NCBI GenBank assembly: GCA_000002445.1
Contig: CP000066.1
Span: 1,024,001 to 1,088,000, forward strand
From: Trypanosoma brucei
Lineage: Eukaryota
Direction: 5' to 3'
Length of the DNA: 64,000 nt
Numbering within the stretch: position 1 is the stretch's first letter; each line of letters begins with the position of its first letter. This document shows, piece after piece, positions 24,483 to 31,999 of the stretch. Both the position numbers and the translations under genes were made by a program. The notes under the pieces were generated by a model. It was not told the origin of the DNA. It searched no databases and saw nothing but the letters and a program-made list of their open reading frames with translations.

Positions 24483-26340
24483 GTTTATGTATATGTATTT
24501 TTAATATATCTTTCTAATTTCTTCTTTTCTTCAGCGCATATATGTATATAATACATGTGTCTACGTGTGTTCGGCGCGGGCTCGAATTGACCCAACGAAA
24601 GCAACGGGGAAAAATGGGGGAAAAGCAATTGAAAAAGAAAGTAGGGAGGAAACGAAGCAGACAATGAAAAGAAGGAAAACAAAATAAAGCCAACGAAAAA
24701 AGGAAGAGAGGTGAACATGAGGGGATTTCATGGTGGGGAGGGGGAAAAAAGGAATACGCGGCGTAACACCTTCTCTATGAGATCTGCAACGGCAAAAAAA
24801 AAAAAGAAATGGCGCGGAAAAAAAGAAGGGACTGTGACGGATTTGAGTCGTTCGGTTTATTCCTCTATTTTTTTTCTCTCCTCTTCTTATTTTGTTTAAA
24901 GTCTCTTTCTCTCTCTTACTCTCTCTTACTCCTCTCTTCCCCTCTTATTCTTTTTTGTTTTTTTACTTTATATATATTTTCTTGTATCGCATCTCCGCAT
25001 TTCAAAGAGGGTGGAGATGAGCATTTTTTCAGTGATAAACGGAAATAAACGAGGATTATGAACACGGATGATTACAACAAGAGAATAATAAAGAAAACAG
25101 TACGTACCAAAAAGAAAAAAAACAAAAGGCAAAGAGTTGAAAGGAAGAGGAAAGGAGCAGGGATGAGCGGGGAAGGAAAGGAAAAGAAGAAGAGAAGTGC
25201 ACTCATTTGTTGTTAAATTCTTTTAGGCACGAACTGAGCTGATGTTCGGTTTTTTTTTCTACTTTTACATGTTTGTTTCAACATTTTGTTTCGATTTTGA
25301 CTTATAAGTAATTATGTATTTGTGAAGGTTTAGTTGGGCGTGATACGTAAATAAATAAATATATATATATTCGTTTATGTATATATGTATGCGTGTACAC
25401 GTTTATGTGTGTGCACGTAACGCAACAAGTAAAGGAAAAGGGTTGCATTTCATGCGGCTCTCCGGGGGTTCCCCCATTTTCCTTCTTTCTTTCCTCTTGT
25501 ATTTTTTATTTGTTTTTTTCTCTTTTTTTTTCTTTCTCTTTATACCCTCTACTTCATTTCTTTATTTTTATTTATTTACCTATTTTATTTTTACTTTTTC
25601 CAGCCGTATTGTCCGTGCGTCCAAGTCACTTTTCGTTCGGTTCCTGCATCACTGCTTGTGTTATTTCATGAGTGTCTGTTTCTGTTTTCATCCTGTTTAG
25701 TATCATACACTAACCAAATATTTTCTTTCTCATATTTTCATGTATCTATGCATATTCCTACATATATGTCAGCTGCTGGTGGCAACGGGTGGAAGTACCG
25801 AAGACAAATTATGTATCAGAAGTTGTAGTAATGTGAAAAAAAAACAATGATTAGGTAAACACATATCAAAGGAAAAGCGTGTGTGCATGTGCTTCACAAA
25901 CCGTCGCATTTGTGATGATCGCAATTACGCATCACCTCCCCTCTCTACTCAAGCACTTCTTAAGGAGATTTTTTTTTTGTGAGGTTTTCACAAAATGCTA
26001 CTGCGAGAGTTACCGTTGTGCCGCTGCTGTTGTGCAACCTGTCGATATTGCAGCTTTAAATTATACCGTCACATGTGCAAAAATAAACCGGGCATACGCA
26101 TGGGAAGGTTATATGCACTTGGTGGAATGCAACGTGACCGAAGGCTCAAAGCTTTCGTAAATGAAACCATTATCGGTGCGTATATAATTGTATACATATA
26201 TATATATATATATACATACGTGTGTACGAGAGGTGTGTGTGTATCAGTGTGACGAGAGGAATCACTTGCTTCATAGCTATGGTAGCAAGGTGGTGTGTTT
26301 GCAACAGCTGCTACTGTTACTGCTCATGTGACCCGTGTGT

Positions 26341-26396
26341 TCACCTTTACCCTCTCTTTCATTACTCCTTGTTATCTTTCCTATATGAACCACGAG
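26341..26396 (+). promoter_or_regulatory. polypyrimidine tract plus first downstream AG: candidate spliced-leader trans-splice acceptor for tryparedoxin copy 1 (equivalent at 29460..29515 for copy 2)
   Basis: The tract tcacctttaccctctctttcattactccttgttatctttcctatatg is followed by ...cacgAG, about 70 nt upstream of the ATG. This is the arrangement kinetoplastids use for mRNA 5' processing. Confidence 0.4.
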
Positions 26397-26463
26397 GTTC
26401 AAGACAAGCGCACTGCTAAACCGAAAGAACAAACAAGACATTCAACTCATATTGTAATTGACG

Positions 26464-26898
26464 ATGTCTGGCCTCACTAAGTATCTTCCTGGCGCAACCA
26501 ACCTGCTGTCCAAGTCGGGTGAAGTTTCACTGGGATCCCTCGTTGGGAAAACTGTGTTTCTTTACTTTTCTGCCTCCTGGTGCCCCCCATGCCGGGGTTT
26601 TACACCGGTCCTCGCCGAGTTCTACGAGAAGCATCATGTGGCGAAAAACTTCGAAGTCGTGCTGATTTCCTGGGATGAAAACGAGAGCGACTTCCATGAT
26701 TACTACGGCAAGATGCCATGGCTCGCTCTCCCATTTGACCAACGCTCGACAGTTTCGGAATTGGGCAAGACATTTGGCGTGGAATCCATTCCGACTCTTA
26801 TCACAATCAATGCTGATACCGGTGCCATCATTGGCACTCAGGCCCGTACCCGTGTCATTGAGGATCCCGATGGTGCCAACTTTCCGTGGCCCAACTGA
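26464..26898 (+). CDS. TXN: tryparedoxin (thioredoxin-fold oxidoreductase of the trypanothione system), tandem copy 1
   Basis: The track start at 26458 is TTG; the real ATG is 26464 (MSGLTKYLPG...). The WCPPC active site sits in VFLYFSASWCPPCRGFTPVLAEFY. The full-length 144-aa product matches the T. brucei tryparedoxin sequence I recall. Confidence 0.95.
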   Translation: MSGLTKYLPGATNLLSKSGEVSLGSLVGKTVFLYFSASWCPPCRGFTPVLAEFYEKHHVAKNFEVVLISWDENESDFHDYYGKMPWLALPFDQRSTVSELGKTFGVESIPTLITINADTGAIIGTQARTRVIEDPDGANFPWPN

Positions 26899-29582: not shown

Positions 29583-30017
29583 ATGTCTGGCCTCGCTAAG
29601 TATCTTCCTGGCGCAACCAACCTGCTGTCCAAGTCGGGTGAAGTTTCACTGGGATCCCTCGTTGGGAAAACTGTGTTTCTTTACTTTTCTGCCTCCTGGT
29701 GCCCCCCATGCCGGGGTTTTACACCGGTCCTCGCCGAGTTCTACGAGAAGCATCATGTGGCGAAAAACTTCGAAGTCGTGCTGATTTCCTGGGATGAAAA
29801 CGAGAGCGACTTCCATGATTACTACGGCAAGATGCCATGGCTCGCTCTCCCATTTGACCAACGCTCGACAGTTTCGGAATTGGGCAAGACATTTGGCGTG
29901 GAATCCATTCCGACTCTTATCACAATCAATGCTGATACCGGTGCCATCATTGGCACTCAGGCCCGTACCCGTGTCATTGAGGATCCCGATGGTGCCAACT
30001 TTCCGTGGCCCAACTGA
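29583..30017 (+). CDS. TXN: tryparedoxin, tandem copy 2
   Basis: Identical to copy 1 except residue 5 (MSGLAKYLPG versus MSGLTKYLPG); the WCPPC motif is intact. The real ATG is 29583; the track start 29577 is TTG. Confidence 0.95.
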   Translation: MSGLAKYLPGATNLLSKSGEVSLGSLVGKTVFLYFSASWCPPCRGFTPVLAEFYEKHHVAKNFEVVLISWDENESDFHDYYGKMPWLALPFDQRSTVSELGKTFGVESIPTLITINADTGAIIGTQARTRVIEDPDGANFPWPN

Positions 30018-30661
30018 GATGCCATGCTGTCTGTGAAGGAAGTGATAAGTATTGATGAAGTACGGTATGGTGTGGGGCATCTGGTGTGGAAGCACTAGTT
30101 ATTCGGGAGCAAGAAAATAAGTAAGTGAAAAGTACAGAGCGAACAGGAGGGAGGGAATGAAAGTGAAAATGCTACGGAACTGAGCAGTAAGCGAAAATGG
30201 AAAATATGCTTTTGTGCCAGGGGAACATTTGTCATGCGGTCCTGCGTGTGTTTTTGTCGGATATCTCGTCATCCATCTTGCGGAGTTTTGTTTATTGCTC
30301 TTTGTTTCGGGGTTGGATTCCTGTTGTGCAGGGGTCCTGTTCCTCACACTTTTGTCATTACATATGTTCTGACCGGCACGCGCCATAATCTTCTGTGGCG
30401 TGGTTTGAATCGGTGTGGGGATATGAGCAGGAGCGGTAAGATATTGAGATATGACGAAATATTGCCTTTACAAATGCTTTCCCACCAGTTTCTTGGTATA
30501 GCTGTGTGATTACATATCCTTTGCGTGTGGGATTGAATTTCACTACGGTCAGTGGAAGCACACGCGTAACTGTTTATTCGCCATCTCTTTCCCTTCCTTC
30601 TTCACGTGACGAAGTTGATTGATACAAGCAATAACAGGATTCAGAGAGCAGTTTTGTAACC

Positions 30662-31522
30662 ATGAGTGCAACAGAGGCGGTTGTTGAGCCGAAGGCTCCC
30701 GATGTATGCACAGAAGCGAATGAGAGACCCCCCACGGAGAGTGGTGTGGCTGCTCCTGTGAAGCGCCTGTTCGACCTTCTTCAGGAAGACTCCAAGGAGC
30801 GTGTGGTTCGGTTGCTGACGGCCTTTCGTGAACTCACATTGCTGGAGCAGGAGTCACTGGCGCAGGAGATGGGCGTAACACTCCCAAAGGAGGAGAAATG
30901 GCGGGCACCGTGTCCTCTGATTGCACGGCAGCCGTCTGGTCCGTCGCTGGAAGTGCGGCGCCGGGATCCCAGTTATGTGGCATTGTGTCCGTCTGTATCT
31001 TCCGCCCTCCGTGAGTTAGGATCGAAAGAGGCTGCCCGTCGCCTCCCGGATGCGGACTTGCGGAAGTTGGTGGAGGGGGCTCTGGGAGAGGACGGCGTGT
31101 ACTTGACGGTTCCCGAGTCTGATGGAGAAGGGTGTGCTGCTGCTTCCGAGCGGGTGGGAGTGGTGGATGACGGCAAGCCACCGCTGCTGGTGCGCAGCCG
31201 CTGTTATCAGGCGCTGCGGCTTGCACGCGATGAAGAGATCGAGACGGACGCTCAATACACAAGGCCAAGGGTGCTGAATGTCACTGGCATTCCATTGGAA
31301 GAAAGTGACGTGTGGGAATGGTTTAACTTGCTGGACGTAGCGCGGAACGGTACTGTGGGTGTGGATGCTTTCCTGACGAGTGTCCGTGAGCTTGATCGCG
31401 GGTTTGGAACAAGCAGCAAGGTACAGGAAGCGTTCGAGGATGAATCACGTTCCCTCTCGGTCGATGGGCAGCTCTCTTTTGATAAGTTCGCGTATTTGGT
31501 GACACGGTTCTCTAGGTACTAA
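30662..31522 (+). CDS. hypothetical protein, 286 aa, copy 2 of the duplicated unit
   Basis: 100% amino-acid identity to 27543..28403; it lies inside the second repeat unit. Confidence 0.6.
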   Translation: MSATEAVVEPKAPDVCTEANERPPTESGVAAPVKRLFDLLQEDSKERVVRLLTAFRELTLLEQESLAQEMGVTLPKEEKWRAPCPLIARQPSGPSLEVRRRDPSYVALCPSVSSALRELGSKEAARRLPDADLRKLVEGALGEDGVYLTVPESDGEGCAAASERVGVVDDGKPPLLVRSRCYQALRLARDEEIETDAQYTRPRVLNVTGIPLEESDVWEWFNLLDVARNGTVGVDAFLTSVRELDRGFGTSSKVQEAFEDESRSLSVDGQLSFDKFAYLVTRFSRY

Positions 31523-31999
31523 GTGATGCTTGTCCGCATGTGAAATGGGAACGGTTGTCCGCAGAATGGATGGGACGGGCTGACAGTTTCCATATCTTCA
31601 TGCCTTCTGTTAGTCTCACGCCCTGCTCAGCGCGCAATGTAAACTGCCGTTTTCTTTATTGTTTCCGAGTTGTCCGGAAGTAGTGAAGGCAACACGATGT
31701 ATGTACGATATGGAAAGCGTGGGTAGAGTTTTTTATTTTTACACGTGTAGGAAGTGACACAGTATGGTGAGAGTTTCCAGCCGTGACATTACCGCCCTTT
31801 TTTTGGTGATGTATGCAAAATTGCAAGGATGTGTTTTGCGATTTTTGAAGTGTTGCCGTTGATTTTATGTTAGTTCTTTTGCATGTTGTTGTTGTGTTTT
31901 TTTTATTTTAATTTCCTCTTCCTTTTTTGTTGTTGAATCTAATTGTAAAATATATATATATATATATGAATTTTTGTGGAGATCCAAGTGTGTCTCTGT

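Follow-up and report, generated by a model that had tools for sequence, protein, structure and literature searches.

Two neighbouring genes of Trypanosoma brucei, one encoding a tryparedoxin and the other a 286-residue protein, occur twice in tandem in almost exactly the same letters. The locus raises two questions: what keeps the copies so alike, and why are two unrelated genes repeated together? We analysed a window of 64,000 nucleotides from chromosome 3 of T. b. brucei TREU927 that contains both copies (genes Tb927.3.3760,.3770,.3780 and.3790). Our preferred answer, to which we assign a probability of about 0.82, is a segmental tandem duplication of TXN1 and PFC6 in the T. brucei group, the copies of which are homogenised by gene conversion and which doubles tryparedoxin dosage, with PFC6 as a passenger.

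Organisation of the repeated unit

Self-comparison at an offset of 3119 aligns two stretches of 2465 bp with one mismatch, and a repeat search of the window recovers the same period. This confirms the tandem cassette of the preliminary description, whose limits (26215-31809) were right to a few bases. The units lie head-to-tail on one strand, and comprise the following features:

26217-28681, + strand: repeat unit copy 1, 2465 bp, one mismatch to copy 2
29336-31800, + strand: repeat unit copy 2, 2465 bp
26476, + strand: sole position at which the units differ, A here and G at 29595
26338-26396, + strand: predicted tryparedoxin trans-splice acceptor (polypyrimidine tract, first downstream AG at 26395-26396; pattern scan), twin at 29457-29515
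26464-26898, + strand: tryparedoxin copy 1, Tb927.3.3760 (TbTXN1b), 144 aa, Thr5, WCPPC active site, exact match to AAZ10409/XP_843968
29583-30017, + strand: tryparedoxin copy 2, Tb927.3.3780 (TbTXN1a), Ala5, 100% identical to 1O73
27454-27495, + strand: predicted PFC6 trans-splice acceptor (polypyrimidine tract and AG; pattern scan), twin at 30573-30614
27543-28403, + strand: PFC6 copy 1, Tb927.3.3770, 286 aa, C-terminal EF-hand pair (about residues 215-283), exact match to AAZ10410/AAZ10412
30662-31522, + strand: PFC6 copy 2, Tb927.3.3790, protein identical to copy 1
28682-29335, + strand: inter-unit spacer, 654 bp, unique
28682-28703, + strand: degraded homology edge, spacer side, 18/22 matches to 31801-31822
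31801-31822, + strand: degraded homology edge, downstream side, counterpart of 28682-28703

The unit holds the tryparedoxin coding sequence with its complete predicted mRNA-processing signals, together with the 5' signals, the coding sequence and the first 278 nt of the 3' flank of PFC6. The polypyrimidine/AG region upstream of tryparedoxin had been described as duplicated, and its predicted acceptor indeed lies inside the repeat. The mismatch falls on the first base of codon 5 of the tryparedoxin reading frame (ATG at 26464 and 29583) and exchanges ACT (Thr5) for GCT (Ala5). It is the only coding difference, as had been proposed, and the reported near-identity of coding sequences and non-coding flanks holds on alignment. 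The copies agree at each of the 1169 non-coding bases of the unit (0 differences); the identity therefore does not stem from selection at the protein level.

The spacer is unique, as previously noted, but measures 654 bp instead of about 640 bp. A blastn comparison at word size 7 gives it no second match within the window, and it has no detectable similarity to the flanks, the TXN2 locus or outgroup intergenic regions. It probably constitutes most of the 3' UTR of PFC6 copy 1.

The tryparedoxin/PFC6 tandem gene pair is already annotated. An exact-sequence look-up matches the window proteins to the consecutive TREU927 accessions AAZ10408 to AAZ10412, in which the PFC6 entries AAZ10410 and AAZ10412 alternate with the tryparedoxin entries AAZ10409 and AAZ10411. 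TbTXN1a/1b and Tb927.3.3770/.3790 of TREU927 are thus the same genes as those of the window, with nothing different; Castro et al. 2010 use the names TbTXN1a and TbTXN1b and list the two TXN1 loci in T. b. brucei as well as in T. b. gambiense. We found no published description of how the locus is built at the nucleotide level (units of 2465 bp, spacer of 654 bp), of the co-variation across strains or of the identity edge that shifts between them.

Age of the duplication and probable homogenisation of its copies

The duplication appears to be specific to the T. brucei group, since a single cassette is found in four other trypanosomes. The T. vivax locus contains a single TXN1 and a single PFC6 (tblastn, 20 kb), T. 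theileri and T. melophagium have one cassette each within 10 kb on either side (tblastn), and T. congolense has one in the available contig, which ends inside PFC6. Within the group, T. b. gambiense DAL972 shows the same repeat-spacer-repeat arrangement with the same junctions. Logan contig L005, from independent short reads of another strain, spans window positions 27495-29365, from PFC6 through the entire spacer into the beginning of the following unit. As the spacer and junctions are common to DAL972 and this other strain, the duplication predates the split of the strains; the recurrence of the structure in these sources indicates that it was not created by assembly and has not only just arisen.

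The preliminary description had left a choice between very recent duplication and gene conversion, and the strain comparison favours the latter. A very recent duplication without gene conversion, whose copies have had too little time to diverge, is consistent with the one difference in 2465 bp, with the failure to detect the duplication in the four species above and with the single-unit assemblies of two T. equiperdum strains. We disfavour this reading and consider it improbable, because the shared spacer and junctions are accompanied by appreciable change: since the strains split, the unit has gained 6-7 SNPs and a 14-bp indel between TREU927 and DAL972, and the spacer 5 differences in 653 positions.

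Within each genome the two units differ by one SNP (1/2465 in TREU927, 1/2371 in DAL972), and the differences between TREU927 and DAL972 are, except at positions 26476 and 27017, common to both copies of each genome, which also speaks against recent origin. Paralogues within a genome are closer than orthologues between genomes, even though the spacer and junctions are common to both. A caveat attaches to the DAL972 side of this comparison: the assembly is a draft from shotgun data, its array is interrupted by a 100-N gap and seems to include part of a third tryparedoxin copy, and overlapping pools of reads may have gone into its two units, which would inflate their similarity. At position 26476 every other T. 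brucei-group copy examined has G, and the Thr5 sequence (AAZ10409/XP_843968) is on record for TREU927 alone. The simplest reading of the Thr5 codon in copy 1 is a mutation private to TREU927 and later than the last homogenisation.

The right-hand edge of the unit provides further evidence against a very recent duplication. Beyond the unit a further 22 bp retain degraded homology, with 18% divergence and a chance probability of 3.6e-8. At four diagnostic sites the downstream side is T-T-C-A in every case, but the spacer side varies, with C-C-T-G in TREU927, T-T-T-G in DAL972 and C-T-T-G in three Logan contigs; two of the four sites are therefore polymorphic between strains, towards the paralogous base, with the proviso that the Logan mosaic haplotypes could be assembly paths through collapsed copies. 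The sharing of strain differences within genomes and the shifting identity edge together point to an older duplication that has repeatedly undergone gene conversion. Under gene conversion, homologous recombination between misaligned units would repeatedly copy one unit onto the other and remove the differences between paralogues, whether the sequence is coding or not, while outside the conversion tract, in the 22-bp edge and the spacer, divergence would persist.

Elsewhere in the window, a diverged lipase pair carries patches of 93-98% identity. Judging from this pair, gene conversion also acts nearby.

The two genes and the remaining alternatives

Both tryparedoxin translations carry the WCPPC active-site motif (FSASWCPPCRGFTP), and the domain is recognised as Pfam Thioredoxin_8 (E 8.9e-26, 90.5 bits, cut-off 27). 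Copy 2 matches the crystallised T. brucei tryparedoxin (PDB 1O73) at 144/144 residues, and copy 1 differs from it at residue 5 only. Tryparedoxins reduce peroxidases and other dithiol proteins in a trypanothione-dependent manner (PMC2935891).

The 286-aa protein, earlier described as of unknown function, is PFC6, a paraflagellar-rod component with an EF-hand pair. Its T. equiperdum orthologue is annotated as 'paraflagellar rod component'. The single sequence matches Pfam EF-hand_7 at E=0.001, under the gathering score, and a profile of eight orthologues matches the EF-hand pair of centrin and calmodulin (E 1.6e-6 to 1e-4, positions 238-302). In Portman et al. 2009, Tb927.3.3770 is PFC6, a proteomically identified paraflagellar-rod component, the level of which in flagella is lowered by PFR2 RNAi (DIGE log2 -1.84, 20 peptides). 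Self-interaction of PFC6 in yeast two-hybrid is reported in the PFR yeast two-hybrid paper.

The flanks of the cassette contain the following features:

23551-24081, + strand: PFC7, Tb927.3.3750, 176 aa, EF-hand-like paraflagellar-rod component, upstream and unduplicated, exact match to AAZ10408 and to a T. equiperdum 'paraflagellar rod component'
24082-26216, no strand: AT-rich low-complexity region of 2.1 kb, free of ORFs, GC 0.36, with microsatellites, upstream of copy 1
26191-26218, no strand: (TA)n microsatellite adjoining the left edge of copy 1, length differing between strains
31976-35074, + strand: downstream neighbour, protein of about 1030 aa with one degenerate thioredoxin-like domain (Pfam Thioredoxin_8, 5.7e-10)

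The PFC7 name derives from Portman 2009. In T. congolense and T. vivax the orthologue of PFC7 is found upstream of TXN2, and the AT-rich region sits where these two species have TXN2. No TXN2 relic was detected in this region by tblastn; TXN2 of T. brucei is located about 370 kb away. In DAL972 the region upstream of copy 1 has a 1.77-kb deletion at microhomology. The protein of about 1030 aa adjoins PFC6 in all trypanosomes examined in which that flank is present.

The preliminary description took the joint duplication to hold the two proteins in strict stoichiometry and to hint at a functional link, which our analysis does not support. Such a link would make tryparedoxin and PFC6 working partners, for example through redox control of a calcium-sensing rod protein, with selection maintaining a 1:1 dosage. 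The order TXN-TXN-PFC6 is shared by organisms as far apart as a distant metagenomic kinetoplastid and T. brucei, and EF-hand rod proteins (PFC7, PFC6) alternate with thioredoxin-fold proteins (TXN2, TXN1 and the protein of about 1030 aa). However, genes in trypanosomatid polycistronic units generally keep their order, which is no evidence of shared function, and the order seen here is synteny conserved across trypanosomatids. Every segmental duplication that exceeds the 1.1 kb of tryparedoxin itself would take in a neighbour. Furthermore, as predicted from the sequence, the PFC6 copies probably end in different 3' UTRs: that of copy 1 would run through the spacer for about 0.9 kb, and that of copy 2 would measure about 0.3 kb; equal gene number thus need not give equal expression.

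Published sources also weigh against partnership. Tryparedoxin is absent from the retrieved table of PFR-dependent proteins and from the available yeast two-hybrid passages on PFC6. L. braziliensis appears to have duplicated TXN1 in tandem independently (LbTXN1a/1b, LbrM29_V2.1240/.1230), and the adjacent numbers in the published gene lists suggest that the two genes stand side by side with no intervening gene, no PFC6 orthologue being found in those lists.

We therefore hold co-amplification of working partners to be very unlikely. The same low weight falls on the wider proposal that the PFC7-TXN2-TXN1-PFC6-~1030-aa block might be a functional neighbourhood for flagellar redox and calcium signalling, in which the duplication would preserve TXN1:PFC6 co-dosage for that reason; conserved order is the only positive evidence for it.

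Least probable is that the reference assembly doubled one real cassette, as might be supposed from the T. equiperdum OVI and IVM-t1 assemblies (upstream region, single unit and downstream region, without spacer), because the unique spacer is joined to the unit on both sides, both junctions are reproduced by the DAL972 contig and Logan L005, and a real SNP between the units yields two separately accessioned proteins. Collapse of a 2.5-kb perfect repeat is expected in short-read assemblies, and that of IVM-t1 was built mainly from MiSeq reads, with only 7,508 PacBio reads. The assemblies divide, DAL972 and the Logan contigs showing the duplication and T. equiperdum a single unit, which could be a real copy-number difference or assembly collapse.

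Comparison with other tandem arrays and gene dosage

Tubulin arrays are multi-gene repeat units whose co-repeated genes encode heterodimer partners, whereas tryparedoxin and PFC6 have no known relationship. The cassette resembles the alternating tubulin alpha/beta arrays (PMC1621084) and the PFR-A/PFR2 genes of T. brucei in that genes of abundant proteins occur as identical tandem copies; for PFR-A/PFR2, the major rod protein, these are two identical genes linked in tandem (Schlaeppi et al. 1989). It also shares with T. brucei tandem arrays under concerted evolution the head-to-tail arrangement in a polycistronic unit, the dosage rationale, homogenisation by recombination and the mosaics among strains and subspecies (Jackson 2007; Jackson et al. 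2010). The arrays of Jackson 2007 (BMC Evol Biol 7:54) comprise >3 gene copies, according to the DAL972 genome paper (Jackson et al. 2010), and the two-copy tryparedoxin-PFC6 unit is absent from the 2007 study. In contrast to those arrays, the present repeat holds two unrelated genes and a unique spacer. As judged from the strain comparison, gene conversion upholds the near-identity of the cassette copies, a process commonplace among tandem genes of trypanosomes.

Because transcription is not controlled gene by gene in trypanosomes, the duplication would, in net terms, double the number of tryparedoxin templates. The duplicated segment covers two adjacent genes of one polycistronic transcription unit, encoding cytosolic tryparedoxin (TXN1) and the paraflagellar-rod protein PFC6. 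For tryparedoxin, an abundant and essential redox relay, the doubled templates would represent a gain in dosage, and PFC6 would, most simply, have been carried along as a passenger in this dosage duplication.

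Identity and structure of the duplicated units

Aligned against itself with a 3119-bp shift, the window shows a single identity block of 2465 bp with one mismatch, and a repeat search returns the same period. The preliminary description of a near-perfect tandem cassette duplication with this period is therefore right to within a few bases. Each unit contains one open reading frame (ORF) for tryparedoxin (TXN1) and one for a 286-aa protein, PFC6.

Features of the array, in window coordinates
26217-28681, +, unit copy 1
26338-26396, predicted tryparedoxin splice-acceptor region, inside the unit (tract scan)
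26464, +, ATG of the 144-aa tryparedoxin ORF, copy 1
27454-27495, predicted PFC6 splice-acceptor region, inside the unit (tract scan)
27543-28403, +, 286-aa PFC6 ORF, copy 1
28682-29335, spacer, 654 bp
29336-31800, +, unit copy 2
29583, +, ATG of the 144-aa tryparedoxin ORF, copy 2
30662-31522, +, 286-aa PFC6 ORF, copy 2
31897-31935, next polypyrimidine tract past PFC6 copy 2, just outside the unit (tract scan)

The sole mismatch, A at 26476 and G at 29595, is the first base of tryparedoxin codon 5 (ACT, Thr; GCT, Ala). The single coding difference noted earlier is thus the only mismatch in 2465 bp, and the 1169 non-coding bases of the unit show zero differences between copies. At the right edge, homology runs on for 22 bp (28682-28703 and 31801-31822) with 18 positions matching, a chance probability of ~4e-8, and then ends. 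A (TA)n microsatellite adjoins the left edge of copy 1.

Exact protein look-up places the window in chromosome 3 of T. b. brucei TREU927, with five products bearing consecutive GenBank accessions: a 176-aa upstream ORF (AAZ10408), the Thr5 tryparedoxin (AAZ10409, a record for TREU927 only), the 286-aa protein (AAZ10410 and AAZ10412), and the Ala5 tryparedoxin (AAZ10411). Both tryparedoxins have a strongly matching thioredoxin-like domain and the WCPPC motif, and copy 2 is identical across 144 residues to the T. brucei tryparedoxin crystal sequence (PDB 1O73). The pair, TbTXN1a (Tb927.3.3780) and TbTXN1b (Tb927.3.3760), and its T. b. gambiense counterpart pair were already reported by Castro et al. 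(2010).

The 286-aa protein had been taken to be of unknown function. It is not so in that sense: Portman et al. (2009) and Portman and Gull (2010) identify Tb927.3.3770 as PFC6 and its upstream neighbor Tb927.3.3750 as PFC7. Comparative proteomics following PFR2 RNAi showed both to be components of the paraflagellar rod, and both carry EF-hand motifs. A yeast two-hybrid map gives a self-interaction of PFC6 and a weak interaction with PFR5 and PFR6. As a single sequence, PFC6 matches Pfam EF-hand_7 below threshold; a profile of eight orthologues matches the centrin/calmodulin EF-hand pair (E 1.6e-6), confirming at the profile level an EF-hand pair in PFC6.

Across 23551-35074, EF-hand rod proteins alternate with thioredoxin-fold proteins (PFC7, TXN, PFC6, TXN, PFC6, and a 1032-aa protein); the last of these has one degenerate thioredoxin-like domain. 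Were PFC6 and PFC7 old paralogues, an older duplication of an EF-hand and TXN pair would be suggested. This reading is unsupported (BLASTP E=27; hhalign probability 1.5%, E 0.035), and the two proteins have no detectable relation beyond their shared EF-hand-like character.

Age of the array and probable homogenization of its units

The same arrangement recurs outside the reference genome. In DAL972, the T. b. gambiense draft assembly, a unit, a spacer, and a second unit follow one another with the junctions found in the window, and the spacer differs at 5 of 653 positions. In independent short-read contigs (ERR7929156, ERR7929162-64), PFC6 continues into the spacer, and one such contig, L005, crosses the entire spacer and enters the next unit. 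On the strength of these assemblies, the duplication is neither an artefact nor brand new.

The T. equiperdum assemblies OVI and IVM-t1 have one unit and no spacer. IVM-t1 was built mainly from MiSeq data with only 7,508 PacBio reads and is essentially short-read, so a collapse of the 2.5-kb perfect repeat and a genuine single copy are equally likely, and copy-number variation was set aside.

DAL972 is itself a gapped draft, with 100 N within the array and a partial third segment of tryparedoxin that is of low quality. It carries a 1.77-kb deletion relative to window 24559-26330 (L002, its chromosome 3, 2839-2856 and 6558-6657), with a short direct repeat, CATGTG...CGTGTGTTC, at its site. Unit 1 thereby lacks its first ~110 bp and retains the tryparedoxin polypyrimidine tract. 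Beyond the 100-N gap lies an undeleted upstream region followed by another unit; the arrangement may represent two haplotypes placed end to end. In two further short-read contigs, L012 (ERR7929157; 1-1748) and L013 (ERR7929156; 872-1909), a tryparedoxin fragment is fused to unrelated T. brucei genes, an opposite-strand PRL-type phosphatase and a 313-aa ORF. These were judged more likely to be library or construct chimeras than additional copies in the genome.

The preliminary description left open recent duplication or gene conversion as the source of the near-identity. All available units were aligned. The two units differ by 1 SNP within TREU927, as do the two complete units within DAL972, and units of the two genomes differ by 6-7 SNPs and a 14-bp indel in the tryparedoxin 5' region. 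Except for 26476 and 27017, all differences between TREU927 and DAL972 are common to both copies of a genome. Because the spacer and junctions are common to the strains, the duplication is older than their split, which disfavors the recent-duplication half of the proposal. Later mutations would be expected in one copy unless copied across; their presence in both is a signature of concerted evolution.

The 14-bp insertion (AAAGAACAAATCCA) lies at 26423/26424 (29542/29543) in the predicted tryparedoxin 5' UTR. It occurs in both DAL972 units and in IVM-t1, and is lacking in both TREU927 units and in OVI.

As a second and independent line of evidence, the edge of the identity block was compared at four diagnostic sites on its spacer and downstream sides.

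Haplotypes at 28682, 28693, 28697, and 28701 and the paralogous downstream sites
TREU927 and one Logan (short-read) contig, spacer side: C-C-T-G
Three other Logan contigs, spacer side: C-T-T-G
DAL972, spacer side: T-T-T-G
All strains, downstream side: T-T-C-A

These haplotypes place the identity edge at different positions among strains, with the caveat that DAL972 is a gapped draft and Logan contigs may be mosaic paths, and the spacer-side changes are always toward the paralogous base. Divergence is 18% in the 22-bp edge and 0.04% within the unit, which suggests a duplication far older than the near-identity of its units would lead one to think. Co-variation across strains and the shifting edge uphold the conversion half of the earlier proposal, and we infer that the units have been homogenized by gene conversion. 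As long perfect substrates for homologous recombination, misaligned units could undergo non-crossover conversion, which would homogenize them and keep the spacer. The outcome of unequal crossover or single-strand annealing would instead be a single unit, as in the T. equiperdum assemblies, provided that those are correct on this point.

Ala5 occurs in every T. brucei-group copy examined other than TREU927 copy 1, which has Thr5. Since strain-specific TREU927 alleles flanking 26476 are homogenized on both sides, the simplest reading of the alignment is a private G-to-A change, a back-mutation after the last conversion. Thr5 may otherwise be a surviving ancestral allele, as it is the residue found in T. 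congolense, T. theileri, and T. melophagium. T. vivax has Ser and a metagenomic kinetoplastid Ala; because residue 5 varies in this way among tryparedoxins, there are no grounds to expect an effect on function.

A second tandem pair in the window (47344-51192 and 52071-55769) encodes large membrane proteins of 1282 and 1232 aa with class-3 lipase domains. Overall identity is only ~30-49%, with lipase-domain patches at 93-98% nucleotide identity (50336-50970 and 54952-55595); on these alignments the pair looks like a gene-conversion mosaic in old paralogues.

Distribution among relatives and origin of the spacer

T. vivax has a single TXN1 and a single PFC6 in a 20-kb locus ordered PFC7-TXN2-TXN1-PFC6, followed by the ~1030-aa thioredoxin-like protein. 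T. congolense shows PFC7-TXN2-TXN1-PFC6 on a contig that stops inside PFC6. T. theileri and T. melophagium each have one cassette within the 10 kb searched on either side, in the order PSP1-TXN2-TXN1-PFC6 and the same ~1030-aa protein. A distant metagenomic kinetoplastid contig carries TXN-TXN-PFC6-like. Given the single cassette in relatives, duplication of the TXN1-PFC6 pair appears to be specific to the T. brucei group.

Synteny breaks directly upstream of TXN1 (window 24082-26216 compared with L014, L015, L019, L020, L022, and L023, loci in relatives and elsewhere in T. brucei). There, T. brucei has ~2.1 kb of AT-rich, ORF-free sequence in the place of TXN2, which is found ~370 kb away adjoining PSP1 (PSP1-TXN2-XPB). 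Searches with T. congolense and T. theileri TXN2 (tblastn) found no TXN2 relic upstream of copy 1 and matched only the two TXN1 genes. The phylogenetic distribution of the three arrangements, PFC7-TXN2-TXN1, PSP1-TXN2-TXN1, and PFC7-(2.1 kb)-TXN1, needs more than one rearrangement or a second ancestral TXN2 copy.

The spacer has no other match in the window. Neither its origin nor a relation to the ancestral region upstream of TXN1 emerged above shuffled controls (blastn with word sizes 7 and 9, Smith-Waterman) against the T. brucei upstream region, downstream flank, whole window, and TXN2 locus (L020, L021), or the intergenic sequence between TXN2 and TXN1 and downstream of PFC6 in T. congolense, T. 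theileri, T. melophagium, and T. rangeli. For non-coding RNA genes in the spacer and upstream region, Rfam (E<=1) returned only far-sub-threshold matches to AT-rich microRNA models; a bacterial promoter and terminator scan, with models irrelevant to a trypanosome, showed no enrichment.

The preliminary description took the strict stoichiometry of tryparedoxin and the co-duplicated 286-aa protein as a hint of a functional link. The adjacency of tryparedoxin and PFC6 is real and conserved, but trypanosomatid gene order is conserved as a rule and adjacency by itself therefore says little. Published gene lists for L. braziliensis indicate two adjacent TXN1 genes, and a PFC6 orthologue was not found in those lists. 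Tryparedoxin is also unmentioned in the passages on the table of rod proteins and on the two-hybrid results for PFC6. The link is not upheld, and the best reading of PFC6 is as a passenger of the duplication.

Expression signals and consequences

In trypanosomes, transcription of protein-coding genes is polycistronic and single genes have no promoters of their own, as is well established and as Jackson (2007) describes, which makes tandem duplication the usual route to higher template number. When polypyrimidine tracts and AG dinucleotides were scanned for, the predicted acceptor signals fell within the unit, so the tryparedoxin mRNAs are predicted to be identical save for codon 5. The predicted 3' UTR of PFC6 copy 1 should be long and run through the spacer (~0.9 kb), and that of copy 2 short (~0.3 kb); the two, in 28404-29400 and 31523-31900, are predicted to differ in length and content. 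The identical PFC6 proteins could thus be under different regulation.

The feature is the annotated TbTXN1a/1b and PFC6 duplicate of the reference genome and is already known. It behaves like the tandem arrays of Jackson (2007) and Jackson et al. (2010); the former, whose arrays had >3 copies according to the latter, does not mention it. No publication on Tb927.3.3790/.3800, and no account of this array, came up in the literature searches. Evidence for conversion from comparing strains, and a tract end that shifts, add a little to this picture and introduce no new kind of feature: the strain-variable identity edge offers a neat small case of gene conversion and no new principle.

The duplication has real, if small, practical consequences. 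The copies are inseparable by short reads or peptides, save at tryparedoxin codon 5 and the distal PFC6 3' UTR, so the expression values that public data sets give for each gene of the pairs Tb927.3.3760/.3780 and.3770/.3790 are largely arbitrary splits, and draft assemblies collapse or split the region. Tryparedoxin is an essential T. brucei drug target. With two genes for it, knock-outs, RNAi, CRISPR edits, and resistance-mutation scans face two loci per haplotype, and recombination can copy an edited or wild-type allele back from one tryparedoxin locus to the other.
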